From NCBI GenBank assembly GCA_965216325.1, contig OZ244160.1, positions 320,001 through 384,000 of the forward strand: a stretch of DNA of 64,000 nucleotides, in the 5' to 3' direction. Positions 37,001-60,813 of the stretch are shown one piece after another. The DNA is from Coraliomargarita sp. (GTDB taxonomy: Bacteria > Verrucomicrobiota > Verrucomicrobiia > Opitutales > Coraliomargaritaceae). Under the pieces are notes generated by a model that did no database searches, had not been told where the DNA came from, and worked only from the letters and a program-made list of their open reading frames with translations. A program made the translations under genes and the position numbers. How positions within the stretch are numbered: position 1 is the stretch's first letter; every line of letters starts with the position of its first letter.

Positions 37001-38929
37001 TTACTTAATGCCCAGGTGTACTTCGGCGAATTGAAGACCAGAGGACTTTTTCACGGATTCTGTAATCAGAAGTTTGTATGTGCTGAATGCCTGGCCAGTG
37101 GCTAGTTTGAAATCACGTGCTTGAAGGCGGGAGGTGAACTGCTCATCCGTACGTTTATCCAGCGACGTCCAGTTTTTTCCATCATTTGAGCCCAAAAGCT
37201 CCCATGACTTCGGATCGCGCTCAGGCATGTCATTGCCACTGACAATGGTGTATGTTGTTGCTGTCAGTGACGACCCTTTTAATGAGAAAACAAAGGAGGC
37301 CGGAAATGTGGGGTTGCCATGGTAATATTTGGTGCCGTAGTTCCCGTCCACCAGTGTCTCTGGTCTGTGTTTGCCTTCAGTGTTTGCACTGGCAGTAACC
37401 GACGCATCCAGTCTTGGTTTTGATGATTTTGTGGCAGCATTCTTATGCCCTTTATTCGCAGCCCAATGGCTCGTCAATTTGTCAGCGGATCCTTTGTTTT
37501 GTGACTCCCAAGTAACCAGTTTACCGGGCTTATCAACATCGAGTGGATCTCCCATCTCTTTCTGAAGTTCAACAAATTCTCTCTTTAACTCCTGTATCTT
37601 TGTGGCGTACTCAGGGTTATCGATTAAATCATTCATCTCAGCCGGATCGTTCTTAATGTTGAACAGGCGCATTTTCTTTGCGGCATGTGGATAGAAGATA
37701 AGTTTCCAGTTATCCTTCAGAATCATGCGCTGAGAGTTCATGTACTTGCCATAAATTCTATCGTACTGAACCGTCTTCTCTCCCTTGATCAAAGGCATCA
37801 GACTTTTGAATTCCACATGGTCCGGTTTTTCGACACCAGCAATCTCAATTGCTGTAGCCATCGCATCCTGAAGGTAGATAGGCGTATCAATTTTGGAATC
37901 TGGTTTTATTCCCGGTCCGACAATAATAAAGGGAGGACGCATCGAGTGTTCATACATACTCTGTTTGCCCATCAAACCGTGATGGCCTGCCGCCAGACCG
38001 TGGTCCGCAGTAAAGATAATGTAGGTGTTGTCCGCTTTTCCACTCGCTTCCAAAGCATCCAGCATGCGCCCGATATGGTGATCCATATAGGTGATTGATG
38101 CATAGTACTCCTGACGGTTGCGCTTTACCGCATACTCCGTTCGAGGATAGGGTGCCAGAACTTCGTCTCGTAGTTTTTTTCCGCAAATCTCTGCTGCATA
38201 CGGGTACTCAGGCATATAGTTCTCCGGGATTTTGATAGAATCAAGCGGGTACATATCCACATACTCTTTTGGAGCCTGACGCGGGTCGTGCGGAGCATTA
38301 AAGGCCAGGTACATGAAGAAGGGCTTGTCATCATTCTTGACCTTGTCAAAGAACGTAAGGGTATTATCGGCCACCACCTGAGTCCAGTGGGTCCCCCCTC
38401 TCCAAAACCCTTGCTGTCTTTTGTCCCAGGGCAACCACTCGCTCTCATAGAGCTCCGGCTTAAAGGTACGCTTGTAGCGTGCAGGTGTCTGGTTCGGCAT
38501 ACCACCACGTACATCCTTCTTTACGTCAAAACGCGGGTTAGCGTGTACGTGCCATTTACCTGTCATGTACGTGGTATAGCCGGCGCTATTCATGATTTGA
38601 GACCAGTGCGGGTACTGTTTGACACCTTTCTCGGCCCGGTTAACAAAGCGGCCCGAGTTGAGCATGGCCCGGCTGGCAACACATACTGCTCCGTCCCAAG
38701 CTCCCATATTATAGGTATGGGTAAACGACACCCCACGTTTCACCAAACGGTCAAGATTCGGCGTTTTTATATTCAATTGTCCGTACGCACCGATCGATTC
38801 ATAGGTCTGATCATCGGCAAAGATGAACATCACGTTGGGCTTTTCCGCAGCACCTTCCGCGGCTGACAACTGACCGGCAAAGGCCAGTGCTGCTGCCGTT
38901 AGGATGGTTTTTATTTTTTGGGTGATCAT
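37001..38929 (-). CDS. Sulfatase with a C-terminal F5/8 type C (discoidin/CBM32-like) domain
   Basis: PNVMFIFADDQ, CVASR, GKWH, TADHG; SGNDMPERDPKSWELLGSNDG. Confidence 0.93.
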   Translation of the reverse strand: MITQKIKTILTAAALAFAGQLSAAEGAAEKPNVMFIFADDQTYESIGAYGQLNIKTPNLDRLVKRGVSFTHTYNMGAWDGAVCVASRAMLNSGRFVNRAEKGVKQYPHWSQIMNSAGYTTYMTGKWHVHANPRFDVKKDVRGGMPNQTPARYKRTFKPELYESEWLPWDKRQQGFWRGGTHWTQVVADNTLTFFDKVKNDDKPFFMYLAFNAPHDPRQAPKEYVDMYPLDSIKIPENYMPEYPYAAEICGKKLRDEVLAPYPRTEYAVKRNRQEYYASITYMDHHIGRMLDALEASGKADNTYIIFTADHGLAAGHHGLMGKQSMYEHSMRPPFIIVGPGIKPDSKIDTPIYLQDAMATAIEIAGVEKPDHVEFKSLMPLIKGEKTVQYDRIYGKYMNSQRMILKDNWKLIFYPHAAKKMRLFNIKNDPAEMNDLIDNPEYATKIQELKREFVELQKEMGDPLDVDKPGKLVTWESQNKGSADKLTSHWAANKGHKNAATKSSKPRLDASVTASANTEGKHRPETLVDGNYGTKYYHGNPTFPASFVFSLKGSSLTATTYTIVSGNDMPERDPKSWELLGSNDGKNWTSLDKRTDEQFTSRLQARDFKLATGQAFSTYKLLITESVKKSSGLQFAEVHLGIK

Positions 38930-39194
38930 TTTATGCTCCTTTGTTAACTTTTTTTCGCCCGCGTTTATCTGCTATTCAGATGTGGACTATTTTTTCCACT
39001 TAACTTTCTTATCAAAACAAGGCCTGTCCGCTTTGTTTTTACTCAATTTATTAAAATTTAAAATTGCCGGGTAACTTATTGTTAATGTTCCAGCTTTTGC
39101 GAAATTTTATTTTAACATGAAGGCTCGTTTCACTCGCTCGGTATTCGCCTTCAAATGCTTTTACTTCTTTTTACTGTTCTTCTTGCCCATTTTC

Positions 39195-41009
39195 TTATCT
39201 GTTGGTCTTTGAATGACAGATATCATCGTGCGTGAAATCGGCCAACGGCAGTCCAAGCCCTTCACGAGTTTGCCATCCTCTCTTATCCCCAGTGTAGATA
39301 TCACAATTGAGAACATATGCATATTTTGCAGCCTGACGTTTTCCGTTGACGACAAATCCAGTACGCAGTTCATTAGCAACACCTTTTTTAAGCGATACTT
39401 TAAATGTCACCTCTTTTGCCCCTTCCGGGATAGCAATTTCCTGTTTGTTTCCGGCAAAGTCGATGTATGCTTTGTCTGCTCCAAGTGCTTTTCCACTGTA
39501 TTTAGCATTGATCGCCTGATCTGCTTCCGCAGCCCAGCGACGGATTGAGACTTCGTAATTACCATCGATAAGAACATCAACCATCCATGGAGCATCGACA
39601 GTTGGTTTGCTTGGAATATGAGTTTGATTCCAGCAAGGCAATCCTTTCGGCACCATATGGTCATGCGATGTAAGTACAGTTGGATTCTGTTCCTTTGCTC
39701 CCAATGCGACACTGCTGAAAATATGGTGTTCCTTGGACACATCAGACCAGAACGACTCATACTGTCCACGCATCATATTAAACACTTCTGGGAACTTCTG
39801 AGCAACATCATTTTTCTGCATCGGATCATTTTTGATATCGAACAACTGTTTTCCATTAACTAGACGCCACTTGTCGGTCATCACCGATGATTGCCTCCAT
39901 TTTCGAGGAGTTACGACACGCTGTGATTCCACAACGAGAGAACGATTACGAAGAGAGTTTTTATCACCGTAAATTATATTCTTAATGCTTGTCCCATCGA
40001 ACTTTACTGACGGTGCTTTAAGATCCAGCATATCAATAAATGTTGGTAGAATATCAAGGTGTGCAGTTAGCTGATTCACATCTTTACCACCACCAATTTT
40101 ACCTTCCGGCCAACGCATGAACCACGGCACACGGTGCCCACCTTCGTACTGAGAACCTTTTCCGCCACGCATACCCCCAGAGTTATAGCGTGCCCCAGCC
40201 GAGCTTCCGTTATCTGTTGTATACACAAGAATCGTGTTCTCCTCAATTCCTTCAGCTTTAAGCATTTCGCGCAGTGCTCCAAAGTTATCGTCAATATTGG
40301 TGATCATCCCGTAAAAACCTTCTGGAGTTTTAGTGTGATTGTACATATCCAGATATTTCTGGGGAGCGCGCATTGGTCCATGCGGAGCATTCGGTGCAAT
40401 ATAGGCAAAAAACGGCTTACCGCTTTCTTTACTCTGTTTAATAAATTTCTTCGCTTCGCCGAACCAGTTATCAGTACAGAATCCTTCAAACTTTTTAAAT
40501 TCACCATTAACATAATAGGTATCGTTAAAGTAATCATTCCCCCAGAAATCTGGAGTCTGCCCCACTCCGCCACCACCGTGCATTGCCACATAGGTGAATC
40601 CACGGTCTTCAGGACGATATGGGAACGCGTCTCCAAGATGCCATTTGCCGAATAAACCTGTCTCGTAGCCATTTTCAGAAAATACATTTGCCATTGTGAC
40701 TTCACGTGTACGCAGCATGTTGCGGCCAAGAACTGTATGCCATACTCCAACGCGGCCTGAATAACGTCCCGTCATAAGAGCAGAACGAGTCGGTGCACAT
40801 GTCGGATCCACGTGGTAGTTTGTCAATCGCACACTGTCTGTGTAGAACGAATCAATATTCGGTGTTTTTATCATATCATTCCCATGACACCCCATATCAC
40901 CATATCCCTGATCATCGGTGAGAACGATAATTACATTCGGCTTATCAGCTGCAGTTGCAGCGCACCCCAATATGCCTAACCCCAAAAGCCCTAAACAATG
41001 TTTGTTCAT
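39195..41009 (-). CDS. Arylsulfatase-family sulfatase
   Basis: PNVIIVLTDDQGY, CAPTRSALMTG, GKWHLG, TDNG, YEGGHRVP. Confidence 0.95.
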   Translation of the reverse strand: MNKHCLGLLGLGILGCAATAADKPNVIIVLTDDQGYGDMGCHGNDMIKTPNIDSFYTDSVRLTNYHVDPTCAPTRSALMTGRYSGRVGVWHTVLGRNMLRTREVTMANVFSENGYETGLFGKWHLGDAFPYRPEDRGFTYVAMHGGGGVGQTPDFWGNDYFNDTYYVNGEFKKFEGFCTDNWFGEAKKFIKQSKESGKPFFAYIAPNAPHGPMRAPQKYLDMYNHTKTPEGFYGMITNIDDNFGALREMLKAEGIEENTILVYTTDNGSSAGARYNSGGMRGGKGSQYEGGHRVPWFMRWPEGKIGGGKDVNQLTAHLDILPTFIDMLDLKAPSVKFDGTSIKNIIYGDKNSLRNRSLVVESQRVVTPRKWRQSSVMTDKWRLVNGKQLFDIKNDPMQKNDVAQKFPEVFNMMRGQYESFWSDVSKEHHIFSSVALGAKEQNPTVLTSHDHMVPKGLPCWNQTHIPSKPTVDAPWMVDVLIDGNYEVSIRRWAAEADQAINAKYSGKALGADKAYIDFAGNKQEIAIPEGAKEVTFKVSLKKGVANELRTGFVVNGKRQAAKYAYVLNCDIYTGDKRGWQTREGLGLPLADFTHDDICHSKTNR

Positions 41010-41044
41010 ATTACATACTCCCTTATTTGTTAACTTTTTTCGAT

Positions 41045-41636
41045 TGATGTGCCCTGAGATTGTTGGACAGAGGATTCCGTTATTTTGATGTTTGGTGTTT
41101 ATGGACTAGTTGTAGTTGATGCAAGCCGTTAGGCTTGTGTTAATGCCCCCCATGGGGGGCGCGGATTTTTCCTCGAACTGAATCGGGTTTTTATAGCCCA
41201 GCGAGGAGTGTTTCCGGAAGCGGTTATAGAACACTTCGATATACTCGAAGGCGTTGCTGCGGGCCGCATTTTCGTCGAAGAAGACTTCATCGCCGACTGT
41301 CGATGTCTTGTATCGACCATAGAAGGATTCCTGAGCGGCATTGTCATAGCAGTTGCCTTTAGCGCTCATGCTCTGCTCGATTCCGAAGCACTTCAACATG
41401 GCTTCGTAATCGTAGCTGGCATACGTGCTTCCACGGTCACTGTGATGGATCAGTCCCTTTGGCAGTTCGCCGCCGCGGGTCAGCACGGCAGCCTGTAGCG
41501 CTTGGCAAACCAACTTTGAGTCATTGCGCGAAGAGACACTCCAGCCAATGATCCGGCGACTATACAGGTCCATTACTGTGGCCAGATAACACCAGCCATG
41601 TTGCACCCGAAGATAGGTCGTGTCCGCAACCCAGAC
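41045..41636 (-). mobile_element. IS3-family remnant (right IR plus OrfB DDE core)
   Basis: Terminal tgatgtgccctgagattgttggaca resembles IS3 IRs; WVADTTY, DLYSRRIIGW, HSDRGS, GNCYDNA..ESF, YNRFRKHSSLGY. Confidence 0.9.
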
Positions 41637-42832
41637 GGGGCGGAAGCCTTGCTGCAGATCAACCGTGAGTTCATTGTCTGGGCGATGGATCGCATTGTGC
41701 CCGGGCGGCTCTTGCATGGTGGAGAACTCGAGTGGTTTTTCGACGACACGCAATTGGAGGTGACTGGCAAGTGCTTCGAATCAGCGGTGATCAACTACGA
41801 GGGCAATACGACTTTGTCCTGCAGACGCTGTGGGTTGGGCCGTTTCTGGCCTGCGGTTGGCTGGGCAAAGGCAGTCGCGATTGCAGCGAACTTTTGCCCG
41901 AACAGTTGGAGCAATGCGAAGCCCTGCTTGGCAGCTACAAGAGTTACCTGTATGCAGACAGTGGGTCCAGTGCCGGGGTCTATCTCAACAAACTGGGCGA
42001 AACAGTGGATCGTTTCAGCGTCAGTTACAACAAGTGGACTGAAGGACCGGAGCGCTGCGCCAAAGAGTTGCCGGAGTCGGCGTGGAGCGACGAGCAGATC
42101 GTGCGTTGGCGCGATGGCAAAGAACACCGTGCCCAGCACGCTTGGCTGCGCTATCAGCCGGAGGGCTGCGAGCAGCCACAGCTCTTTGCGGTGACGCGTC
42201 ACCAACTGGCCGATGAGGAACTGTTCGGGCGCTATGCCTTCATCTGCTGTGAGTCGGGGCGTGAGGGGCGCGCCGATATGGCCGTGGAGCGGCACAAGCT
42301 CAAAGGCGACCGGGAGCGCCAGTTCTCACAAGTGCTCACCGACATGGATTTGCACCATCCCCCATGCAAGAGTCTGGCAGCCAATCAGGTCTTCTATGCA
42401 ATCGGCGCGCTCGCGCACAACCTGCTCCAAGCGATCAAACTGATTCACCTGCCCGACCACGAGCAGCCCATACGTATCCGCACCCTGCTGCATGTGCTCA
42501 TGCTCATCCCTGTAACCTTCAAGCGCCATGCCCGTCAGCTCAAAGCAGTGTGCTGTGTGAACAGCCGTTGGCTGCCATGGTGGCGCAAGTTTGCCCACGA
42601 ACTAGACGCACTCTCGGCGCTCTACAAGTTGCGCCCCTCGCCAGGCTGATGCCGATCAAATTGCCCCGATACCCCTACGCGGACGCTGAGCCGCTCGCAC
42701 TACCAATCCGCCCGAATCCCGTAACCCGAAGCAGGTATCACGATCCGAACTACCCGTTCGGATGCGCCAGCTTGCGCGAAACGAACAAAACACTCTACAC
42801 AGAGAAAACTTTTACACTGCTAAGGATCGGGG
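41637..42832 (+). mobile_element. IS1380-family transposase remnant (5'-truncated, frameshift near 41821) with right end
   Basis: FFDDTQLEV, YADSG, HKLKGDRE, ANQVF...LAHNL; end ctaaggatcgggg. Confidence 0.7.
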
Positions 42833-42844
42833 CGTATTTTTCCC

Positions 42845-45541
42845 TCATTGCTTTAAGATTTTGATATAATCAATATTCATACAGTATACCGAAGCAGATT
42901 CCGCTTTTAGTTCTACCTTGTTCACACCAGCTTTTAGCGTAATTGACTCTGAATGATCTTCCCACTTGCCCCAATCTCCGGTGCGTTTACAGTGAAGCGT
43001 TTTTATCTTTTCACCATTTATGTGGAGAGCGACAGATTTACTATCCCCACTGCCAGACGCATATCTCAGAGTCATAGTATGGGTGCCAGCCTTTGATGCC
43101 TTAACAGTAAAGGTCATATTTCCCCGGGTCGTGTTGTAAAAACCCTCGACAAAACCTGTTCCGGAGTAACCAGCGTGATTGTTAGCAGTGCTACATTCAT
43201 CCAATTTTGCATATTCAGCCTCATAAACACCGCTTTTTTCAGCCCTTTCTATTTCTATCAGAGAGACATCGATGTACTGACCTCCGCCTGCGTTCTGGCA
43301 ATGAACAGCCAAGGTGTTTTGGCCCTTTTTGAGCGCCGCCTGGGCTTCGGGCGAGATTTTAACAACCTTGTATTCAGTCGTATAACCAACAAGCTTTGCG
43401 GCCTGTACACCATTGATATAGACAGTTGCGTCCTCATCCCAAAACGCATCGAGCATAAGTGATCCCTCTCCCGGATCAAAGCTGAAAGAACTCCTTATCC
43501 AGATGTTTGGCGTGGTCCACTCGGTTTTGATGAAAGTACCTGGAGTATTTCTACTCCCGATTCCGGCAGGACCCTCAGTCCAGTTGTTTGCTGTGAACTC
43601 AGGATTCATCCAATTTTTAGCCGGCTTCGTTGTCGTATAGCGCACGGGAACTTTGTTGGCTTTGGCGCGTTTGATGACGTACTTGCGAGGCACCACTTTT
43701 TTATAGAGCGGCGCGTGAATTTCCTTCAGGGTTTCGGCCGGAATCTTGATGACCTTGCGGTCATAACTCATCAGGCCGTTGATCTCCAGTTCAACATCAG
43801 ATGTTTGTGTATAGATCCCACCGGCAACACCGCTGCGTTTGAGGTCGAGTAGACGCCTGGCCGACTCTTTATATCGGTCAAGAAGTTCGTTCAGACTTTT
43901 AGGCACCGAGCCGTAGCTGTATGGTCTTCCTTTTGAAGTCCAACGGTTTTCTTTTGGCACAAAAAAGCCGTGTCCGCCATATTCACCGACAACCTTAATG
44001 TAATCATCGAAGCGGGGATCTTCGGTAGGGAATTTAGGATGAGGATACTGGTGATGATCGGCCACATCGCCGACAGGCCAGAAGTTTCCTCCGCTTGCAC
44101 CATTCACCAGACGGCTGGGATCATAATCGACAGTCCATTGGACCACCTTCATCGTCCTGTGCTGCGCCCATCCTTCATTGAACGGGACCCAGGACACGAT
44201 GCTCGGGTAATTGTATAAATAGTCGATCATTTCCTTGAGTTCATACATAAACTGTTGGTGAGCAGCTTCCGGCCAGTTGGGCTCGGTTGGATTCGGTTCC
44301 AAATGGGAATTCCACTTGGCATGAGGTGATCCCGAGACCTGATCCTGCCAGACCATCATGCCGACCTTGTCGCAGTGGGCGTAATAACGGCGCGGACGGA
44401 CCTTGATGTGATTGCGAATACAGTTGAATCCGGCCGCCTTGAGGTAATCGATATCGAAACGCATAGCCTCGTCTGACGCAGGGGTCAACAGCCCATCGGG
44501 AAACCAGCCCTGATCCAAAGGCCCGAGGTGGAAAATTTCCTTTCCGTTGAGGGTAAAGCGCCAGTTGCCAGCCTCGTCCTGCATCTTGCCAACGGTGCGC
44601 AGTCCCGTGTATGACTCAACGGTATCAACGGAGTCCTTACCAGAAAGAAGTTCAACCTTTAGCTCATACAGGTGCGGGGTGTCCGGTGTCCACAGCTTAG
44701 CGTCTTTGATGGGAAGGACTGTATTTTCAAGAGAGCCCGTGGCCGAGGCCACCTCTTTGCCCTCATAGAATGCCGTCACCTTCACACTGGAGGCTTTAAC
44801 CGCGGCGTCATTAATAAATGTCTTTACCGAGATGGCAGCGGGTGCAATTGTTGTATCAATCTTAATGCGCTTGATGTAGGTCTGCGGTACGGATTCCAAC
44901 CATACAGTCTGCCAGATACCCGATACGCGAGTGTACCATATGCCATGTGGTCTGCGTGACTGCTTACCTAATAGCTGGTATTTTTCGGTTTCGTCGATGA
45001 CCTTAACGGAGATTGTATTCTCGCCTTCGATAGCGGCATCGGTAATGTCAAAGGAGAAGGGGGTGTTGCCGCCCTTGTGGGTTCCAACCAAGGTACCGTT
45101 GACCCAGGCCGTGCACTCATAGTCTACCGCTTCAAAATGCAGGAGATGACGATGGTCCTTTTTCTTTAAATCGAATGTCCGCTGATACCACAGTTCTTCA
45201 CTAGGTTCGAGAAGGCGTTGTACTCCGGAAAGGCTCGACTCAATGCAGAACGGCACCAAGATATCGCCATTCCATTTATCGGGAGCACTGCTACTCGCAT
45301 GCTTAGAGCGCTTTAAGACGGCGTACTGCCATAGTCCGTTAAGATTCTGCCAGTTCTCGCGAACCATCTGCGGACGTGGGTACTCCTGCCAGACATTCTC
45401 CGGCGTCACCGATTCAGCAAATTTCGTTTTGATATTATCACCTGCCGGTTTCCAATCTGTGGTAGTTTCAGCGGCTGATACTTGACCGGCAAAGGCCAGT
45501 GCAGCTACCGCGAAGATGTTTTTTATTTTTTTTGTGATCGT
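42845..45541 (-). CDS. GH2 glycoside hydrolase with C-terminal CBM35/CBM6-like module; start codon is ACG
   Basis: YPRPQMVR..W.NLNG.W, GPLDQGWFPDG, WVPFNEGW, VGEYGG, YTQTSDVELE; YEAE...GYSGTGFV CBM; in-frame leader starts ACG-ATC. Confidence 0.88.
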   Translation of the reverse strand, partial: TITKKIKNIFAVAALAFAGQVSAAETTTDWKPAGDNIKTKFAESVTPENVWQEYPRPQMVRENWQNLNGLWQYAVLKRSKHASSSAPDKWNGDILVPFCIESSLSGVQRLLEPSEELWYQRTFDLKKKDHRHLLHFEAVDYECTAWVNGTLVGTHKGGNTPFSFDITDAAIEGENTISVKVIDETEKYQLLGKQSRRPHGIWYTRVSGIWQTVWLESVPQTYIKRIKIDTTIAPAAISVKTFINDAAVKASSVKVTAFYEGKEVASATGSLENTVLPIKDAKLWTPDTPHLYELKVELLSGKDSVDTVESYTGLRTVGKMQDEAGNWRFTLNGKEIFHLGPLDQGWFPDGLLTPASDEAMRFDIDYLKAAGFNCIRNHIKVRPRRYYAHCDKVGMMVWQDQVSGSPHAKWNSHLEPNPTEPNWPEAAHQQFMYELKEMIDYLYNYPSIVSWVPFNEGWAQHRTMKVVQWTVDYDPSRLVNGASGGNFWPVGDVADHHQYPHPKFPTEDPRFDDYIKVVGEYGGHGFFVPKENRWTSKGRPYSYGSVPKSLNELLDRYKESARRLLDLKRSGVAGGIYTQTSDVELEINGLMSYDRKVIKIPAETLKEIHAPLYKKVVPRKYVIKRAKANKVPVRYTTTKPAKNWMNPEFTANNWTEGPAGIGSRNTPGTFIKTEWTTPNIWIRSSFSFDPGEGSLMLDAFWDEDATVYINGVQAAKLVGYTTEYKVVKISPEAQAALKKGQNTLAVHCQNAGGGQYIDVSLIEIERAEKSGVYEAEYAKLDECSTANNHAGYSGTGFVEGFYNTTRGNMTFTVKASKAGTHTMTLRYASGSGDSKSVALHINGEKIKTLHCKRTGDWGKWEDHSESITLKAGVNKVELKAESASVYCMNIDYIKILKQ

Positions 45542-45598
45542 GGTGTTTTTCTTTATTAAATGTTTCTTGATTACTTCTACTTACTTTTCAGATGCGGA

Positions 45599-47947: not shown

Positions 47948-47986
47948 GCTATATCCTTTTATTATTTTTCTCGAACGCTACTGAAA

Positions 47987-51126: not shown

Positions 51127-51166
51127 GCTATATCCTTTTATTCACTTTTTTCGATCGCTGCTGAAA

Positions 51167-53098: not shown

Positions 53099-53171
53099 GG
53101 TGTTTCCCTTTATTAAATGTTTCTCGCTCGCATCTATCTGCTATTCAGAAGCGGACTATTTCTTCCACATT

Positions 53172-53197
53172 GATCCGCGCGCTGACGCGCACGGATC
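53172..53197. repeat. Short REP-like palindrome at a junction breakpoint
   Basis: gatccgcgcgc-tgac-gcgcacggatc. Confidence 0.6.
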
Positions 53198-53236
53198 GTT
53201 TATGCGATCACTTCGTGTCTTTATCTTCTGTGGGTA

Positions 53237-55540
53237 TTATTCTGCATCTTCATATACCAGAGAGACATCGATGTACTGACCACCGCCTGCGTTCTGGCAA
53301 TGAACAGCCAAGGTGTTTTGGCCCTTTTTGAGCGCCGCCTGGGCTTCGGGCGAGATTTTAACATCCTTGTATCCAGTCGTATAACCAACAAGCTTTGCGG
53401 CCTGTACGCCATTGATATAGACAGTTGCGTCCTCATCCCAAAACGCATCGAGCATCAGTGATCCCTCTCCCGGATCAAAGCTGAAAGAACTCCTTATCCA
53501 GATGTTTGGCGTGGTCCACTCGGTTTTGATGAAAGTACCTGGAGTATTTCTACTCCCGATTCCGGCAGGACCCTCAGTCCAGTTGTTTGCTGTGAACTCA
53601 GGATTCATCCAATTTTTAGCCGGCTTCGTTGTCGTATAGCGCACGGGAACTTTGTTGGCTTTGGCGCGTTTGATGACGTACTTGCGAGGCACCACTTTTT
53701 TATAGAGCGGCGCGTGAATTTCCTTCAGGGTTTCGGCCGGAATCTTGATGATCTTGCGGTCATAACTCATCAGGCCGTTGATCTCCAGTTCAACATCAGA
53801 TGTTTGTGTATAGATCCCACCGGCAACACCGCTGCGTTTGAGGTCGAGTAGACGCCTGGCCGACTCTTTATATCGGTCAAGAAGTTCGTTCAGACTTTTA
53901 GGCACCGAGCCGTAGCTGTATGGTCTTCCTTTTGAAGTCCAACGGTTTTCTTTTGGCACAAAAAAGCCGTGTCCGCCATATTCACCGACAACCTTAATGT
54001 AATCATCGAAGCGGGGATCTTCGGTAGGGAATTTAGGATGAGGATACTGGTGATGATCGGCCACATCGCCGACAGGCCAGAAGTTTCCTCCGCTTGCACC
54101 ATTCACCAGACGGCTGGGATCATAATCGACAGTCCATTGGACCACCTTCATCGTCCTGTGCTGCGCCCATCCTTCATTGAACGGGACCCAGGACACGATG
54201 CTCGGGTAATTGTATAAATAGTCGATCATTTCCTTGAGTTCATACATAAACTGTTGGTGAGCAGCTTCCGGCCAGTTGGGCTCGGTTGGATTCGGTTCCA
54301 AATGGGAATTCCACTTGGCATGAGGTGATCCCGAGACCTGATCCTGCCAGACCATCATGCCGACCTTGTCGCAGTGGGCGTAATAACGGCGCGGACGGAC
54401 CTTGATGTGATTGCGAATGCAGTTGAATCCGGCTGCCTTCAGGTAATCGATATCGAAACGCATAGCCTCGTCTGACGCAGGGGTCAGCAGCCCATCGGGA
54501 AACCAGCCCTGATCCAAAGGCCCGAGGTGGAAAATTTCCTTTCCGTTGAGGGTAAAGCGCCAGTTGCCAGCCTCGTCCTGCATCTTACCAACGGTGCGCA
54601 GTCCCGTGTATGACTCAACGGTATCAATGGAGTCCTTACCAGAAAGAAGTTCAACCTTTAGCTCATACAGGTGCGGGGTGTCCGGTGTCCACAGCTTAGC
54701 GTCTTTGATGGGAAGGACTGTATTTTCAAGAGAGCCCGTAGCCGACGCAACCTCTTTGCCCTCATAGAATGCCGTCACCTTCACACTGGAGGCTTTAACC
54801 GCGGCGTCATTAATAAATGTCTTTACCGAGATGGCAGCGGGTGCAATTGTTGTATCAATCTTAATGCGCTTGATGTAGGTCTGCGGTACGGATTCCAACC
54901 ATACAGTCTGCCAGATACCCGATACGCGAGTGTACCATATGCCATGTGGTCTGCGTGACTGCTTACCTAATAGCTGGTATTTTTCGGTTTCGTCGATGAC
55001 CTTAACGGAGATTGTATTCTCGCCTTCGATAGCGGCATCGGTAATGTCAAAGGAGAAGGGGGTGTTGCCGCCCTTGTGGGTTCCAACCAAGGTACCGTTG
55101 ACCCAGGCCGTGCACTCATAGTCTACCGCTTCAAAATGCAGGAGATGACGATGGTCCTTTTTCTTTAAATCGAATGTCCGCTGATACCACAGTTCTTCAC
55201 TAGGTTCGAGAAGGCGTTGTACTCCGGAAAGGCTCGACTCAATGCAGAACGGCACCAAGATATTGCCATTCCATTTATCGGGAGCACTGCTACTCGCATG
55301 CTTAGAGCGCTTTAAGACGGCGTACTGCCATAGTCCGTTAAGATTCTGCCAGTTCTCGCGAACCATCTGCGGACGTGGGTACTCCTGCCAGACATTCTCA
55401 GGCGTCACCGATTCAGCAAATTTCGTTTTGATATTATCACCTGCCGGTTTCCAATCTGTGGTAGTTTCAGCGGCTGATACTTGACCGGCAAAGGCCAGGG
55501 CAGCTATCGTGCCTAATGTTTTTACTCTTTTTTTGATCAT
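53237..55540 (-). CDS. GH2 glycoside hydrolase, paralog without the terminal CBM
   Basis: Near-identical to 43259-45470; ends DVSLVYEDAE*. Confidence 0.9.
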   Translation of the reverse strand: MIKKRVKTLGTIAALAFAGQVSAAETTTDWKPAGDNIKTKFAESVTPENVWQEYPRPQMVRENWQNLNGLWQYAVLKRSKHASSSAPDKWNGNILVPFCIESSLSGVQRLLEPSEELWYQRTFDLKKKDHRHLLHFEAVDYECTAWVNGTLVGTHKGGNTPFSFDITDAAIEGENTISVKVIDETEKYQLLGKQSRRPHGIWYTRVSGIWQTVWLESVPQTYIKRIKIDTTIAPAAISVKTFINDAAVKASSVKVTAFYEGKEVASATGSLENTVLPIKDAKLWTPDTPHLYELKVELLSGKDSIDTVESYTGLRTVGKMQDEAGNWRFTLNGKEIFHLGPLDQGWFPDGLLTPASDEAMRFDIDYLKAAGFNCIRNHIKVRPRRYYAHCDKVGMMVWQDQVSGSPHAKWNSHLEPNPTEPNWPEAAHQQFMYELKEMIDYLYNYPSIVSWVPFNEGWAQHRTMKVVQWTVDYDPSRLVNGASGGNFWPVGDVADHHQYPHPKFPTEDPRFDDYIKVVGEYGGHGFFVPKENRWTSKGRPYSYGSVPKSLNELLDRYKESARRLLDLKRSGVAGGIYTQTSDVELEINGLMSYDRKIIKIPAETLKEIHAPLYKKVVPRKYVIKRAKANKVPVRYTTTKPAKNWMNPEFTANNWTEGPAGIGSRNTPGTFIKTEWTTPNIWIRSSFSFDPGEGSLMLDAFWDEDATVYINGVQAAKLVGYTTGYKDVKISPEAQAALKKGQNTLAVHCQNAGGGQYIDVSLVYEDAE

Positions 55541-55597
55541 GCTATATCCCTTTATTAAATGTTTCTCGCTCGCATCTATCTGCTATTCAGAAGCGGA

Positions 55598-57937
55598 CTA
55601 TTTCTTCCACTCAACTTTCTTATCAAACTCAAACCAATCCAGGTTAAACATGCCGCTCCCTTGCCCGGTAAAGACCAGGTAGAGATCCTGCTTGCCGCTC
55701 AGGCCGCTTACCTCGCAGGACATCTCATCCCAGAAACCCCAGTTTCCAGTAGGTTTCACGCGACAGGAACCGAGCAGTTTACCGCTTGCACTACCCAGCC
55801 TCAGCTCAATGGTGCCGCCATTTTTGTTGCCGCATGCTACCCGAGCCGTAAACGTTTTGATTCCCTCAGGGAACTCCATGCCCTCGAACATAATCCAGTG
55901 ACCGTTGTCGATATATCCAAGGTGATGCCCAGAACCTGAGCTTTCTTTTTTCGTGCCGGAATTTCTTGTGTACGCCTCTGCCTGGACGCCGGAAATAGGC
56001 TTTGGTTTATAGACGGGGAAATACACATTCTTCTCAGGAGAACCCGCACGGTTCAACCATCCCCCTTTTGAAGCGGCATAGTTATCGATTTTTCCGCGCA
56101 AGGCATCGTAGCCGGCAGGTTTTGTTTTCGAGACGACGATATCCTTTATGATATTGGTTTTGTTTTTACTATTATTGTTGAGCCAGAGATCTGTTTGATT
56201 GGTCCAGAATATGCAATTTCTATACGTATTCTTGTAGGTGTCATCATCCAGATGCAGGCAGTGTGATTGGTCAGCACCCACGTTGAGAGCTTTGCCCACA
56301 TTATACTGCCATAGGGTATCCAGTCCGGCTTCCCAGCTGTAGAGAGCGCCACCATCTCTCATCCTGGTCATCCAGTCTTCCAGGATGTTATACTCAACAA
56401 GATTATTGCTGGAGTGGAGTTTGGGAATCTTTGATGCGAGACCATAGGGCCGGTCTTTTTTCAGCTCATCCCAGCGTGCCTGGTACATGGCCTGCTTGTT
56501 GCCGTAGGAATCGGTTGTATCCACTCGTTTCGGATCATTCATCTGGTCGGGCTTCATGCCGATGATGGAAACTGCCGCGTAGGGCATCTCTTTGAACCAG
56601 TTATACCTAACCTTGTTATTATGGCTGCCATATATTTGGACTGGATTGGAGTGCATGTAATCGAGCCCCATGTGGTGGATATAGTTTCGCTCAATCAGGT
56701 GACTGTGGTTGAGATCGACATCTCCCGGGCCATAACCGGTAATACTGACTCCGCCTGAATTGTTGTACGCGATCTCATTGCCTGTAATAAATACTCTCTG
56801 CGCATAGTGATCCAGAGCTATTCCCTGAGATCCGGAGTTGGCGATCACACAGCTGTCAATCACAATATCCCGTACACCCTGGAGGAATATCATCGCATCC
56901 GAGCTCTCCCCATTTCGCGTGAGCCATTTCGGGTCGTACTCATGTTCACGGGTAAAATCACTGTACCTGAATACCAGATTGCGCAGCTCCACATGGTGCA
57001 CCTGCTGCTTCCACGCCTGCTCCTCTTCGTCTCCCTGAAAGCGGACGAGTTCACTCAATGAGGGAGAAAACGTCTTCTTGCCATCCATGGTGCCGTCTGC
57101 AGGCCAGTAATAGATCTTACCCGCAGCTGAATCCACCACATATTCATTCTCTGAATCCAGCAGTGGGATCGCATTGCGCAAGTTGTACCAACCACCGCCA
57201 TACAGCCTTATGTTACGGTATTGCACCGTTATATCGCTGTGCAGTCGTGCCGTACTCTTTTCCGGATCGATATCGCTCAACGTACCTATGATGTTCCACC
57301 AGACGGCGGTGGTCATAACGATTTCGGCATCATCGTTCCTGGGAAAGTTCTTAAGCGCTCCGGCAGGAAACCGCAACAATCGTCCTTTTACGGCTTCAGG
57401 GTGGCCACCGCTCAATCGGGGCCATTTCTTGAAGAATGTCCGGACCTGCGCCTGGGCGATCTGCTGTCTCACACCGTTCACAAAGAGATATTGCGGACGC
57501 CAGCCTTTCTCAATGCTCGCCTCGAAAACCTTACCCTTGGCAAGCTCCGGCAGCCCCGCCGGGTAGTCACTTACTTTCTTCCAGCCGGTGATGTATTTCT
57601 TGCTGGTGATTCGGGCTGTTTCTTTGGGATAGGAGCGGTATACCACAGGCTTTCCCTCTTCGCCGGAATCCTGAGGGGTCAGAATAAAGGTTTCGCTTAG
57701 ATTGTATTCGCCCTCGCGCAGATAGACCGTGAAGCCACCCGCGGGCAGCGGATTCGTCTTGCGGTACGCTCGAATCGCATCGCGCGACTTGGCAAGGGTC
57801 AGGAATGGCTTGGCTTCGGTGCCCGGGTTTGTGTCTTTTCCGTCCGGGGCGACGTAGAACGTTTCGCCGGCGAACAACTGACCGGCAAAGGTCAGTGCAG
57901 CTACCGTGAGGGGCTTCATTAATTTTTGGGTGATCAT
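55598..57937 (-). CDS. Right-handed beta-helix enzyme (GH141-like) with CBM6, paralog of 45599-47947
   Basis: Same architecture, patchy divergence. Confidence 0.85.
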   Translation of the reverse strand: MITQKLMKPLTVAALTFAGQLFAGETFYVAPDGKDTNPGTEAKPFLTLAKSRDAIRAYRKTNPLPAGGFTVYLREGEYNLSETFILTPQDSGEEGKPVVYRSYPKETARITSKKYITGWKKVSDYPAGLPELAKGKVFEASIEKGWRPQYLFVNGVRQQIAQAQVRTFFKKWPRLSGGHPEAVKGRLLRFPAGALKNFPRNDDAEIVMTTAVWWNIIGTLSDIDPEKSTARLHSDITVQYRNIRLYGGGWYNLRNAIPLLDSENEYVVDSAAGKIYYWPADGTMDGKKTFSPSLSELVRFQGDEEEQAWKQQVHHVELRNLVFRYSDFTREHEYDPKWLTRNGESSDAMIFLQGVRDIVIDSCVIANSGSQGIALDHYAQRVFITGNEIAYNNSGGVSITGYGPGDVDLNHSHLIERNYIHHMGLDYMHSNPVQIYGSHNNKVRYNWFKEMPYAAVSIIGMKPDQMNDPKRVDTTDSYGNKQAMYQARWDELKKDRPYGLASKIPKLHSSNNLVEYNILEDWMTRMRDGGALYSWEAGLDTLWQYNVGKALNVGADQSHCLHLDDDTYKNTYRNCIFWTNQTDLWLNNNSKNKTNIIKDIVVSKTKPAGYDALRGKIDNYAASKGGWLNRAGSPEKNVYFPVYKPKPISGVQAEAYTRNSGTKKESSGSGHHLGYIDNGHWIMFEGMEFPEGIKTFTARVACGNKNGGTIELRLGSASGKLLGSCRVKPTGNWGFWDEMSCEVSGLSGKQDLYLVFTGQGSGMFNLDWFEFDKKVEWKK

Positions 57938-57993
57938 AGTAGATCCTTTATTAAATGTTTCTCGCCCGCGTTTATCTGATATTCAGAAGCGGA

Positions 57994-60813
57994 CTATTTC
58001 TTCCACTCAACTTTCTTATCAAACTCAAACCAATCCAGGTTAAACATGCCGCCCCCTTGTCCGGTAAAGACCAGGTAGAGATCCTGCTTGCCGCTCAGGC
58101 CGCTTACCTCGCTGGACATCTCCTCCCAGTTAGCCCATCCTCCAGTAGGTTTCACGCGACAGGAGCCGAGCAGTGTGCCGCTTTTACTACCCAATCTCAA
58201 CTCAATGGTGCCGCCATTGTTATTGCCGCATGATGCGTGAGCCGTAAACTTTTTGATTCCCTCAGGGAACTCCATGCCCTCGAACATAATCCAGTGACCG
58301 TTGTCGATATATCCGATATGGTCACTTTGATCGTTGCTTTCAATAACCATTCCCTTGGATTTCTTACTAAATGTTTCCGCCTCAATTCGGTCGGCAACAG
58401 CTTCCGGGGAGGGGGTGAATCTCTCAAGCATCTCTTTTTGTATCGCAGCAGCGGAGGCATGAGGACTTTTGACTCCCGAATAGATCACCAGGTCGTCGCT
58501 TTTATCAATGCCATTGCTGGAGACTGTTGCGGTAACGACAACCCGACCTGTGCCCTTCAGAGTCACCAATCCTTTACTGTCAATTGACGCTATGGCAGGG
58601 GCGCTACTAGTGTAGGTGAGTTTGGCAGATGAGAGATCGGCCTCATACCATTTTTCCGTCTTGCCGCTTATACTTGTCTGCAGCGTGTCACCGGGCTTGG
58701 CTTCCAGGTATGTATCATGACCTTTGCCCTTAAGGAACACACGGTGCAGTTTGCCATTCTTTGGTGAAAAGGAGAAACTTTTGAGCAGGCCGACTTTACT
58801 GGTATCAATGGATCTCATCCCCATCGCCAAAGCAGGAGAGTTCTCTTTTAGACGGTAATCACGTTCTTTGGCGTTGATAAAATGCGGGTCCGTCATCTTA
58901 CTGTTTTGGTCGGCATTTTTTTTCTTTGTCGCATCCTGCCAGGCGCTTAGTGAACTTCCCCCTTTTGGAAAGTTAAATTTTCCCTGCTTGTTAAAGTAGA
59001 TGTTGTAGTCCATCTCACCAAGGGATCTGATATCTTTAAAGCGGAAGGTAAGGCGGTCTGCTCCGTTACCATGCACACCTCCATCGCCATGGACTTTTTG
59101 TGCATGATCGCTGTAGATGATATTGTTATAGAAGAACAGCTTTCTCGCTGGTTCAATATAATGGGAGAGGTTAGCTGCTCCGTGTTCAGACAAACTTGCA
59201 TCAAATACATTATTATAAATCAGATTATCAACGCCTTTTGACATGAGCTGAGCATTGACTGCTGGTGTCTTCGTGTCATAGACAATATTATTCCTGATTG
59301 TCCAGTAATCAGAACCATCGTCCAGAAAGATACTATGTCCGCGCCATCCGCCCTTGGGGCTTCCCGTGTAAGCGTTTATGATGATGTTGTTGTCAACGAC
59401 ATTACCACGGCCTCCTCCCCAACACTCGATACCCCCGCCATCGGCAGAATCGGCGCCAAGGTCATACATGTAGTTGTAGCGAAATATATTTTTGTTGGAG
59501 TGTATATATTTATCCCAGTCAGAAAACTTCACGTGTCCCAAGCCCACAGTATTGCGTACGCCATAACGGGCTCCTTTCAGCGAGATCCCATAACGTCGTG
59601 ACTGATGAATGAGGTTGTGTTCGATAATATTCTCAGCGCTCTGATAAATCTGCACACCTGTTGCGTGATTCACAGTTGCCATGATATTAGAGATTTCATT
59701 ATTGCTGATGATGTTGCCTTTATTGATCACTTCGGTGTTGTCTTTATGAAGCAGTAGGCCGGCTAGGTAGACTCCGCTGTAACCGAGGTTTGTCATTTTA
59801 CAGCCGGATACCGTGTTGTTCTGTGCCCAACCGTACAGGGAGACTGCGTGGAGGGGGGCATCATGGAGATCGCAGTCAAGAACCTGAATATTCTTGGCGT
59901 TTTCCATCAGGATAAGCGACGTACGCAGCGTTTCCGGGTAGTCGGCATTTTGACGTTCATACCCATCAATTGTTGTTCCACTGTAACAGGGCATGCTGGC
60001 ATTAAAGTCAGTTAAGAGTATTTCCAGTCCCTGGATTTTTATGTTGCTGACTGGCTGCTTGCCACTTTCACCCTTGAACGTAAAGACGCTCTTGGCCGTT
60101 GGCCGGATCACAGCATCCAGTTCTTTTTTGTTTTTGGGATAGTAGTAGAGATATCCGGCATCAGAATTGACCGCCCATTCTCCAGGTTCATTGATAAACT
60201 CAACATCGCCGCTGTAGTGACGTAATCCTCCGCTGAATTTGCTTTTGGGATAATCGCTGACAGGCTGGTTCTTGTCATTCAACTTGATTTTAAGGTATTC
60301 AGACATCCATGCGCCTTGATAGTAGGCCTGAACGTTGCGGATCGACTTCGGCTGCTTCCATTTGTTTTCCTTAGCGATTGAGGCAAGCTTCCCATCGACA
60401 AGTAAAGACCAAAACTCAATGTCTTTACCAATGTTGGCTTTCATGATGCCGTCTTTATACGGCTCCCAGTTTGTTACGGGCACCCCACCAATGATGACAG
60501 GTTTTTCATCCTTGTAGTTCCGGTACGTGATATACTGGCCGTCTGGGCCGCTGTCACGGTGATCAAAACGGATGCTCTCTTTGATGTGGTACACGCCACC
60601 TCGTATGTTCACGACGACGGATTCTTTTGAATCTTTATTGAGCTTCCTCACCGCATCCCGGGCCTGGGTTATGGTGGCAAAGGGGCTCTTTAGGGTTCCC
60701 GAGTTTGTGTCTTTTCCGTCCGGGGCGACGTAGAATGTTTCGGCGGCTGATAATTGACCGGCAAAGGCCAGGGCAGCGATCGTGAAGATGGTTTTTATTT
60801 TGTGGGTGATCAT
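57994..60813 (-). CDS. Right-handed beta-helix enzyme with Ig-like (Big_2) domain and CBM6
   Basis: FYVAPDG, IRGGVY, DGGGIE, IFLDDG, DPHF..DYRL, YTSSAPAIASIDSKG; shared CBM6 tail. Confidence 0.85.
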   Translation of the reverse strand: MITHKIKTIFTIAALAFAGQLSAAETFYVAPDGKDTNSGTLKSPFATITQARDAVRKLNKDSKESVVVNIRGGVYHIKESIRFDHRDSGPDGQYITYRNYKDEKPVIIGGVPVTNWEPYKDGIMKANIGKDIEFWSLLVDGKLASIAKENKWKQPKSIRNVQAYYQGAWMSEYLKIKLNDKNQPVSDYPKSKFSGGLRHYSGDVEFINEPGEWAVNSDAGYLYYYPKNKKELDAVIRPTAKSVFTFKGESGKQPVSNIKIQGLEILLTDFNASMPCYSGTTIDGYERQNADYPETLRTSLILMENAKNIQVLDCDLHDAPLHAVSLYGWAQNNTVSGCKMTNLGYSGVYLAGLLLHKDNTEVINKGNIISNNEISNIMATVNHATGVQIYQSAENIIEHNLIHQSRRYGISLKGARYGVRNTVGLGHVKFSDWDKYIHSNKNIFRYNYMYDLGADSADGGGIECWGGGRGNVVDNNIIINAYTGSPKGGWRGHSIFLDDGSDYWTIRNNIVYDTKTPAVNAQLMSKGVDNLIYNNVFDASLSEHGAANLSHYIEPARKLFFYNNIIYSDHAQKVHGDGGVHGNGADRLTFRFKDIRSLGEMDYNIYFNKQGKFNFPKGGSSLSAWQDATKKKNADQNSKMTDPHFINAKERDYRLKENSPALAMGMRSIDTSKVGLLKSFSFSPKNGKLHRVFLKGKGHDTYLEAKPGDTLQTSISGKTEKWYEADLSSAKLTYTSSAPAIASIDSKGLVTLKGTGRVVVTATVSSNGIDKSDDLVIYSGVKSPHASAAAIQKEMLERFTPSPEAVADRIEAETFSKKSKGMVIESNDQSDHIGYIDNGHWIMFEGMEFPEGIKKFTAHASCGNNNGGTIELRLGSKSGTLLGSCRVKPTGGWANWEEMSSEVSGLSGKQDLYLVFTGQGGGMFNLDWFEFDKKVEWKK

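Follow-up and report, generated by a model that had tools for sequence, protein, structure and literature searches.

We analysed a stretch of 64,000 nucleotides (nt) from the genome of Coraliomargarita sp. (NCBI GenBank assembly GCA_965216325.1, contig OZ244160.1, positions 320,001 to 384,000 of the forward strand), hereafter the window, which contains at positions 37001 to 60813 an array of genes for polysaccharide-degrading enzymes and sulfatases. Enzymes of unrelated folds in this array begin with one and the same leader, a signal-peptide-like stretch of about 25 codons that is preserved at the level of DNA. A preliminary description had taken the unit formed by the tail of the previous gene, a spacer, a ribosome-binding site (RBS) and the leader to be a recombination or gene-conversion joint that captures and reorders enzyme genes with an outcome like that of an integron.

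The leader and the enzyme array

A 21-nt core of the leader, GCACTGGCCTTTGCCGGTCAG, was matched eight times in the window, always on the minus strand and with 0-2 mismatches (0 in 100 shuffles), and CCTTTGCCGG was found exactly in all eight copies, where 0.14 were expected. In every copy the core begins 39 nt past the start codon of a long open reading frame (ORF), and this start codon is ATG except for an ACG at 45541. According to Pfam, the enzymes behind the leader are three sulfatases (here S1a, S1b and S1c), two GH2 enzymes and three right-handed beta-helix enzymes with a C-terminal CBM6. The claim that eight genes share a leader of about 25 codons kept at the DNA level was thereby borne out. 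The mature parts of the three sulfatases are 30-34% identical to one another, and the first mature residues are common to all three beta-helix genes.

The leader comprises about 27 codons (23-27 over the copies of the module), with the consensus MITQKIKTxLTVAALAFAGQLSA followed, after the likely cleavage point, by AE. By inspection of the translations it has an n/h/c layout (MITQKIKT, then ILTVAALAFAG, then QLSA/AE): basic residues number two or three, the hydrophobic part is 11-13 residues long, and the residues ahead of the cleavage point are small. For this and the later comparisons we assembled 25 leaders from five sources; two diverged leaders of Lentisphaera marina (876638 and 871885) were excluded from the codon, tree and diversity counts. 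None of the 25 contains a cysteine and none contains RR, that is, neither a lipobox cysteine nor a twin-arginine motif was observed. To judge by inspection, the peptide looks like an ordinary Sec signal for signal peptidase I, and we infer that in each gene the module probably provides translation initiation and general Sec export. DNA homology between different folds stops 64-85 nt past the ATG, and the predicted cleavage site lies at about +69, in keeping with the earlier observation that similarity between folds ends there.

With up to three mismatches allowed, the core has nine copies in the 3.06-Mb genome, eight of them in the array and one at a distance of 47 kb. Since the leader is confined to the array and one nearby copy, the organism does not use it as its signal peptide in general; unrelated leaders head two sulfatases of the array as well as the enzymes around it. 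Two further core matches with four mismatches (at 90368 and 92387 in window coordinates, the numbering being continued past the end of the window) are not leaders and were discarded.

An AAAGGA-type RBS is present in all eight joints, 8-12 nt ahead of the ATG (weakened to AAAGAA in the GH2+CBM6 gene); it is conserved, and an A-rich stretch directly follows the ATG. As had been described, one or other of two spacers, together with this RBS, stands ahead of seven of the eight genes. Spacer type A (five copies) follows a CBM6 tail or its relic, and spacer type B (two copies) follows one sulfatase C-terminal domain. At three of the spacer-A joints a weak sigma-70-like match, TTGATA-18-AATAGT, lies at the end of the CBM6 coding sequence (45598-45627, 55597-55626 and 57993-58022). 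A scan of the array gave 17 promoter-like and 16 terminator-like sites, compared with 20.2 and 20.6 expected, and the recurring TTGATA-18-AATAGT is not evidence of function.

The whole array lies on the minus strand and is followed here from high to low coordinates, the enzymes being assigned by Pfam, the leaders by core match and Pfam together with their translation, and the spacers by joint alignment. Upstream of the array stands a scaffold (60815-63999, 86% nt identity to L. marina) that consists of an unknown protein of 760 amino acids (aa; 60815-63097) and an MFS sugar transporter. Pfam, NCBIfam and PDB sequence searches with the 760-aa protein gave no match, and it has no signal peptide. 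A second conserved protein of about 760 aa corresponds to a 754-aa ORF just past the window end, and the pair heads the locus both in the window genome and in L. marina. The first enzyme gene, beta-helix+Big_2+CBM6 (57994-60813), abuts the 760-aa gene, and the RBS of its leader (60733-60813; core match and Pfam) lies within the 3' end of that gene. It is followed by spacer A (57938-57993), a beta-helix+CBM6 gene (55598-57937; leader 57857-57937), another spacer A (55541-55597) and a GH2 gene (53237-55540; leader 55460-55540). This GH2 gene has lost its CBM6, and downstream of it spacer A (53099-53168) retains a relic of the CBM6 tail, recognised from the joint alignment and a self-match.

Next come sulfatase S1c (51167-53098; leader 53018-53098), a spacer B (51127-51166, also seen as a self-match) and sulfatase S1b (49801-51126), whose leader (51046-51126) is 92% identical to the beta-helix leader that starts at 47947. 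The following sulfatase (47987-49801), from which the shared leader is absent, has a start that overlaps the S1b stop and a C-terminal domain in common with S1c; its C-terminal approximately 165 codons form one shared block with the spacer B behind it (47948-47986; self-match). A beta-helix+CBM6 gene (45599-47947; leader 47867-47947) is then followed, after its CBM6 tail, by spacer A (45542-45598) and the GH2+CBM6 gene (42845-45541). Segment identities mark the leader of the latter (45461-45541) as a hybrid with an S1c-type 5' half and a GH2-type 3' half, with an ACG start and a weak Shine-Dalgarno sequence. Behind this gene the array is broken by insertion-sequence debris (41045-42650), namely an IS3-type rve fragment (41106-41753) and a DDE_Tnp_1_4 fragment (41732-42649). 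A sulfatase in which the leader survey did not find the shared leader (39195-41009) precedes another spacer A (38930-39016), which contains the CBM6-tail relic FDKKVKWKK followed by a stop codon and has no CBM6 gene upstream. The array ends with sulfatase S1a, which carries an F5/8 type C domain (37001-38929) and whose leader (38849-38929) has 27 codons that translate to MITQKIKTILTAAALAFAGQLSAAE. An ORF with a group II intron maturase (GIIM) domain lies at 28268-28939, just ahead of the polysaccharide locus.

Two parts of the array, each with a beta-helix and a GH2 gene, are copies of a 4.7-kb segmental duplication detected by self-blastn: 43256-47973 (copy 1) and 53255-57964 (copy 2) are 93.6% identical over 4728 nt. 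The upstream end of copy 1 lies 26 nt before the beta-helix ATG, in the RBS/leader joint. Since one beta-helix+GH2 pair is a recent duplicate of the other, the leader copies represent fewer than eight independent cases. In copy 1 the GH2+CBM6 gene has ACG at 45541-45539, where the other genes have ATG, and AAAGAA at 45552-45545 in place of AAAGGA. Its frame of 898 codons is still open, and the first canonical start, a GTG at 45409, would drop the signal peptide; the gene looks like a recently silenced duplicate.

The array in other bacteria and the age of the leader

A search of the 40 most closely related genomes, of which three belong to the genus, another 21 to the family and another 16 to the order, did not find the joint DNA. 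A close orthologue of the beta-helix enzyme is lacking there too; its best catalytic match is 27% identical. When the leader was sought beyond its own genome by pattern scans of public collections, arrays of it were found in Lentisphaera marina IMCC 11369 and in the metagenome-assembled genome (MAG) of Opitutia bacterium ARS76, and two further metagenome contigs were also positive. A MAG titled Chloroflexi bacterium SI047_bin16, possibly mis-binned, has five leader copies on three contigs. Matches to a degenerate pattern in Pseudomonas fluvialis (L030) and in the metagenome contigs L035 and L038 lay inside unrelated ORFs, not at an N terminus, and were rejected. When residues 1-40 were used for a word search in 5.8 billion proteins, only five matches resulted, all metagenomic. 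One of them is a 530-aa sulfatase, of a subfamily that lacks this leader in the window genome, and another is a GH141-like enzyme that has half a leader.

For L. marina, positions 865-895 kb of NZ_JAQZZL010000002.1 (L054/L055) were compared with window positions 36996-63999. The L. marina genome (5.3 Mb) has seven core matches, all of them confined to 19 kb and to a single strand. Counting two diverged leader copies, the array is made up of nine tandem genes in the order beta-helix+CBM6, sulfatase-GH43, GH95, sulfatase, GH95, sulfatase, GH29, sulfatase and PA14-beta-helix, of which the GH29 fucosidase bears only the first half of the leader. An S1a-type sulfatase of L. marina is fused to GH43 (811 aa; L055:5384-7816), and its orthologue in the window has the F5/8 type C domain; in this sulfatase, domain swapping at the linker appears to accompany leader swapping. 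The flanking scaffold is shared as well and includes an AraC-type regulator (94% nt identity), the two unknown proteins of about 760 aa and the MFS transporter.

Between the window and the other sources, the enzyme genes are 84-94% identical in nucleotide sequence. No 16S rRNA was found in the genome, 24 kb of which consists of N, and RpoB was therefore used as a coarse measure of kinship. Amino acid identity of RpoB to the window genome was 80% for a relative of the same order, 71% for the Opitutia MAG, 59% for L. marina and about 55% for the third MAG. The G+C content of the array is 46-51%, compared with 53.3% for the genome, and that of the L. marina region is 44.7%. Because the genes are 84-94% identical at an RpoB identity of only 59-71%, and because the array is lower in G+C, the locus has moved horizontally across phyla, which indicates a transfer between Verrucomicrobiota and Lentisphaerota of the enzyme locus including its regulator. 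To judge by the family names (GH29, GH95, GH141-like beta-helix, GH2 and many sulfatases), the likely substrate is a sulfated polysaccharide that contains fucose.

The age of the leader was approached through synonymous positions. In 256 pairs of leaders from different enzyme families, which are not independent of each other, identical residues were encoded by identical codons in 3229 of 4176 cases (0.77), whereas 0.34 was expected from genome codon usage. For the bodies of orthologous enzymes in different genomes this fraction was 0.74-0.86. For the bodies of the three sulfatase subfamilies it was 0.36-0.41, which is the random level, and for the leaders of the same three subfamilies it ranged from 10/14 to 14/16. 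The synonymous sites raised in the preliminary description thus supported the view that the leader is homologous DNA and not a convergent peptide. Since leaders are as alike as orthologues while the sulfatase bodies are at the random level, the leader is much younger than the genes that it heads. This comparison showed that its age is roughly that of the separation of the loci in the different genomes, yet it heads at least five unrelated catalytic folds.

Leader history, recombination and alternatives

Leaders and enzymes were then compared in their histories, and these proved to be discordant. The closest leader sits on another enzyme family for 17 of the 25 leaders, on the same family for six, and two are tied. 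On a maximum-likelihood leader tree (84 nt, weak support) 12 changes are needed to account for the family labels, six being the minimum under strict co-descent; shuffled labels need 16.1 on average, and in 0 of 300 shuffles was the number as low as 12. This implies at least six switches, although some co-descent of leader and family persists.

Individual genes give the same picture, and close homologues do carry other leaders. The GH95 orthologues of the window genome (a gene outside the window) and L. marina are about 91% identical from about codon 45 on, and their leaders are unrelated; between L. marina and the third MAG, the GH95 bodies have 99% identity, and four of 17 comparable leader codons differ. 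A paralogue of S1a 72 kb away (window coordinate 111 kb; G000:C1:431095-432578) is 96.4% identical over 1431 nt, a block that ends within the leader. In its own leader, which has an in-frame TAG, about 60% of the aligned positions match (counted by hand from the alignment), and its upstream flank differs, being the tail of a homologue of the 760-aa protein. The two GH2 genes, 99% identical in the body, are identical (1.00/0.99) from +43 on, just ahead of the invariant core; from -12 to +42 the leader of the GH2+CBM6 gene has an identity of 0.83 to the S1c-type leader versus 0.67 to its GH2 paralogue, and it is therefore a hybrid. An unequal crossover between the GH2 leader and the downstream sulfatase leader would give exactly this footprint.

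The ninth leader copy (G000:C1:427879-428175, window coordinate 107879, plus strand) begins no more than a stump of 98 codons from an S1c-type sulfatase, located downstream of GH95. L. marina has the same GH95-to-S1c neighbourhood with the sulfatase intact. Together with the ACG start and weakened RBS of the GH2+CBM6 gene and the TAG in the diverged S1a-paralogue leader, this 98-aa stump of leader and sulfatase belongs to a group of decaying copies; leader copies, too, are undergoing loss.

Homology blocks that cross gene borders were found between different enzymes. A block of CBM6, spacer A and leader is common to 45465-45919 and 57861-58314 (86%), and a block of sulfatase C-terminal domain, spacer B and leader to 47880-48474 and 51059-51660 (89.5%). 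A second, unrelated leader family, MKRISKLFPVVALFTGLSLCTTHAVDV, lies outside the window (G000:C1:432576-435806; window coordinates 112576-115806). It is 100% identical from -25 to +81 ahead of a GH2-like gene (728 aa) and a GH29 gene (586 aa), about 770 nt of the upstream gene are also 95% identical, and all similarity ends with the signal peptide. The whole genome was also scanned for homology that extends from upstream as far as codons 15-43 of an ORF and no further, and 20 pairs were detected: 17 belong to the leader of the array, one to this second family and two are artefacts. What looked like a third leader locus at 1.584-1.590 Mb of the genome was rejected, being homology of sulfatase paralogues around the catalytic motif behind an internal Met.

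Between genomes, the joint intervals, 6.2% of the array length, contain 28 of the 47 block ends inside the array (blocks of at least 400 nt, ends at contig ends dropped), an enrichment that is overstated, the 47 ends being non-independent and gene starts being natural ends of conservation. The other ends mostly recur at domain linkers, at the start of CBM6 and at the start of the shared sulfatase C-terminal domain (near 48460/51640 and 45919/55918). A fixed gene order had been held to speak against the recombination proposal; in fact, order differs among genomes whose genes are 84-94% identical. In the window S1c, S1b, the leaderless sulfatase and a beta-helix gene follow each other, and on one metagenome contig that sulfatase is directly followed by S1b. 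In L. marina a beta-helix gene precedes S1a; the spacer A at 38930-39016 is homologous to the joint between the beta-helix CBM6 and S1a-GH43 there, the block reaching 39016, and the window S1a thus keeps 87 nt of that joint with the CBM6-tail relic behind a new upstream neighbour. Taken together, these findings showed that segments which were duplicated, swapped or reordered end at the module.

We favour the reading that the unit of RBS and signal peptide, about 100 nt long, is a portable 5' module of a horizontally mobile pool of genes for fucose- and sulfate-containing polysaccharides, a pool found in marine Verrucomicrobiota and Lentisphaerota, and that it is reshuffled by general recombination at leaders and domain linkers; we assign it a probability of roughly 0.58. 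Once tandem direct repeats of the module existed, they would allow unequal crossing-over of the general (RecA-type) kind and short conversion tracts, and the domain tails ahead of it (CBM6, the sulfatase C-terminal domain and F5/8) would add homology for recombination. Enzyme genes could in this way be duplicated, deleted, reordered and exchanged, also after transfer between genomes. The result resembles an integron in outcome, without a dedicated recombinase or site. Going further, we regard it as a tentative and rather speculative idea that the module acts as a homology-based cassette adaptor, a RecA-dependent functional analogue of the integron attachment site, in which the same approximately 100 nt both recombine and secure translation and export; marine members of the PVC group (Planctomycetes, Verrucomicrobia and Chlamydiae) that belong to different phyla and have the same scaffold of regulator, transporter and leader array could then trade, duplicate and drop enzymes to suit the algal glycan.

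Several observations weigh against recombination at a portable module. Genome labels on the leader tree need 13 changes, compared with 13.8 after shuffling (125 of 300 shuffles were as low), and leaders from different enzyme families have mean identities of 0.79 and 0.83 inside one genome and of 0.81 across genomes; since leaders do not cluster by genome, there is no sign of current homogenisation within genomes. A four-gamete count gave at least eight events in 90 nt, to which recurrent mutation may contribute, and a permutation test modelled on the pairwise homoplasy index was not significant (p = 0.09). When joints of the window genome are compared in pairs, the longest run of perfect identity has a median length of 18 nt, and in 14 of 36 pairs it is at least 22 nt long. 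Runs of such length are near the lower limit for efficient RecA recombination in E. coli. The overstated enrichment of block ends counts here too, as does the first capture of the leader, which we only infer: it would have been a rare in-frame recombination at the border of signal peptide and mature protein, a border that would be the sole visible joint site because both parts stay functional there.

No recombination event was directly observed in the four sequencing runs compared, which are contigs and are blind to rare variants. Metagenome contigs join sites 2.4 kb apart in two cases, X1 (55549 to 53106, with 62 letters that fit both sides) and X4 (58251 to 55854, with 64). These junctions lie inside shared CBM6/spacer sequence and may reflect a missing cassette or a mere mosaic joint in a relative, the contigs being too short to tell. 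Joints in the organism's own runs X15 and X16 carry extra letters, and none was taken as a rearrangement. Of these, at least the joint from 53005 to 60737 is a contig of the copy at window coordinate 107.9 kb that cross-maps onto paralogous leaders. Uncovered parts of the stretch in X1, X4 and X15 carry no information, and twelve more metagenome runs, with shares of 0.18-0.30, were left out of account.

The strongest competitor, which we nevertheless consider unlikely, is conservation driven by function, that is, a tuned initiation region, an mRNA hairpin, post-transcriptional control or a sorting signal, recombination being incidental. In GCC-TTT-GCC of the core, three third positions are invariant in the 25 leaders, at a mean third-position diversity of 0.28. 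The core also forms a small palindrome, CUGGCC-N6-GGYCAG (for example at 38870-38887), with a stem of 5-6 bp and 96% of cells paired; RNAalifold predicts the hairpin, and its pairing is kept through T/C variation in a Gly codon and one G-to-A change, with G-C, G-U and A-U as alternatives at one pair. The A-rich region after the ATG, the conserved RBS and the retention of the module in two phyla are likewise consistent with function. However, covariation in the hairpin was not above that due to conservation (288 of 500 shuffles were as good), the n/h/c layout is ordinary for Sec with many residues variable, and other secreted enzymes of the locus bear other leaders. No candidate sorting machinery is co-conserved either, the shared flanks being the AraC-type regulator, the MFS transporter and the two unknown proteins without a signal peptide. 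Function would account for the retention of the leader, but not for hybrid leaders, blocks that span gene borders or leader swaps between orthologues.

Less probable again is a historical relic, in which the leader was grafted in one burst when an ancestral locus was assembled, and descent, ordinary rearrangement and transfer did the rest, with no continuing role for the leader. The lack of clustering by genome fits such a history, and the third-position diversity of the leaders is comparable in magnitude to the divergence between orthologues from different genomes. Four cases argue against it. The second leader family records a recent event, being 100% identical ahead of two different enzymes; one GH2 leader is a hybrid despite bodies that are 99% identical; the GH95 orthologues with 99% identical bodies differ in four of 17 leader codons; and the S1a paralogue, 96.4% identical in the body, has another leader.

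A dedicated site-specific system of the integron or shufflon kind, with an unrecognised recombinase acting on the palindromic leader core, we regard as very improbable. In its favour, all cassettes have one orientation (8/8 copies on the minus strand in the window; in L. marina, 7/7 core matches on a single strand), the core is a short palindrome, and at least one crossover maps beside it. A Pfam scan of 36 window ORFs, however, found no tyrosine or serine recombinase, Phage_integrase or resolvase, and only rve, DDE_Tnp_1_4 and GIIM fragments. The preliminary description was right that the window has no visible recombinase of these classes, and the two transposase fragments are to be added to its account. 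An IS3-type piece at 41045-41636 matches window coordinates 69833-69242, just outside the window, at 98%. The two IS3-type pieces are inverted and bracket most of the leader array and the regulator, a layout like that of a composite transposon, in which the window copy is a fragment. Beside the L. marina array, an ORF resembles an insertion-sequence transposase to judge by its N terminus. The mobile-element genes near the arrays of the window and of L. marina are different ones, and breakpoints are spread across the joint and over domain linkers instead of falling on one nucleotide. Palindromes of the attC type (60-140 nt) were not found, and the only conserved pairing in the joint is the stem of the leader core, with 5-6 pairs unlike that of attC.

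Simple paralogy, that is, a leader shared through gene duplication alone, covers both GH2 genes and two beta-helix genes in the 4.7-kb duplication and fits the first mature residues common to the three beta-helix genes, but it is refuted as a full explanation by the unrelated Pfam families behind the leader (sulfatase, GH2, beta-helix, GH95 and GH29) and by sulfatases that are 30-34% identical, with random codon identity in the body but not in the leader.

We therefore return to a portable module reshuffled by general recombination, and here the earlier proposal has to be divided. The unit of gene tail, spacer, RBS and leader behaves as a recombination joint in its shared blocks, in its decoupling from the enzymes and in the varied gene order; there was no support for ongoing recombination, circles or reordering within a strain, and nothing about the joint is specifically integron-like. 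The integron-like character as such was not upheld, there being neither an integrase nor an attC-like site, and recombination would rest on short homology. The pattern is real and striking, and its reading as an active cassette system is unproven.

Significance and comparison with known systems

How loci for sulfated algal polysaccharides, with dozens of enzymes, are assembled and quickly retuned is poorly understood, and the shared head described here offers a concrete route of assembly. It is a head for expression and export that marks the borders at which genes of unrelated fold were duplicated, swapped and reordered. Should the head be a site of active recombination, this would be the general-recombination counterpart of cassette systems and a natural plug-and-play secretion adaptor of interest for enzyme engineering. 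The leader can also be used as a DNA tag for retrieving this enzyme pool from marine metagenomes. In open-access full texts and preprints we found no description of leaders shared across unrelated enzymes of polysaccharide utilisation loci.

Integron arrays consist of exchangeable genes in one orientation with a repeated junction element; their content and order vary between hosts, and they are exchanged horizontally. The present array is like them in its single orientation and in an order and content that vary between hosts. Unlike them it has no IntI (among the 36 window ORFs), attI or attC; its repeat lies at the 5' end, is translated and supplies the RBS and the export signal in place of sole dependence on a shared promoter, and its recombination would depend on homology. 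In the precursors of prochlorosins and other lanthipeptides and of cone-snail toxins, a conserved leader precedes a variable body, and the border lies at the processing site. Those families have a dedicated enzyme that recognises the leader and short cargo of one family, whereas here a general Sec-like leader heads whole, unrelated enzymes. The vsa, vsp and vpma loci for variable surface lipoproteins of Mycoplasma have a 5' untranslated region and signal peptide that are conserved at the DNA level in numerous genes of a locus and take part in recombination. They differ from the present array in their site-specific recombinase, their inversions, which switch expression, and their paralogous lipoproteins; here there are direct repeats only, no recombinase was found in the window, and the genes are presumably co-expressed.

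In phytoplasmas, the signal of sequence-variable mosaic (SVM) proteins is conserved at both the amino acid and the nucleotide level (Pfam PF12113). With the PF12113 profile, the eight leader proteins gave no match at E <= 0.001, and the resemblance is one of function only. As in the phytoplasmas, whose SVM and potential mobile unit (PMU) genes form clusters (PMC3743221), one signal conserved in its DNA heads diverse secreted proteins in repeated, mobile, mosaic clusters. The cargo there consists of small effectors in phage-like units of a pathogen with a reduced genome, and here of large catabolic enzymes in an operon-like array.

The closest parallel that we can offer is the lpl tandem cluster of Staphylococcus aureus. 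According to the study of that cluster, a conserved stretch present in every ORF is a site of homologous recombination, the inherited unit begins in the 3' part of an ORF and ends in the 5' part of the ORF that follows, phylogenies are incongruent across the conserved site, and rearrangements differ between genomes (Tsuru and Kobayashi, 2008; PMC2568036). The array described here likewise has a conserved nucleotide stretch in its ORFs (except for two sulfatases), blocks that span gene borders and incongruent histories on either side. The lpl cluster comprises paralogues of one family with the site in mid-gene, whereas here the site is the RBS and signal peptide at the 5' end, the folds are unrelated and the module is shared between phyla. 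The process would in both be ordinary recombination at a conserved intragenic repeat; to our knowledge, what is new is that this repeat is placed in a translated RBS and signal-peptide unit, has unrelated folds as its cargo and is spread over more than one phylum.

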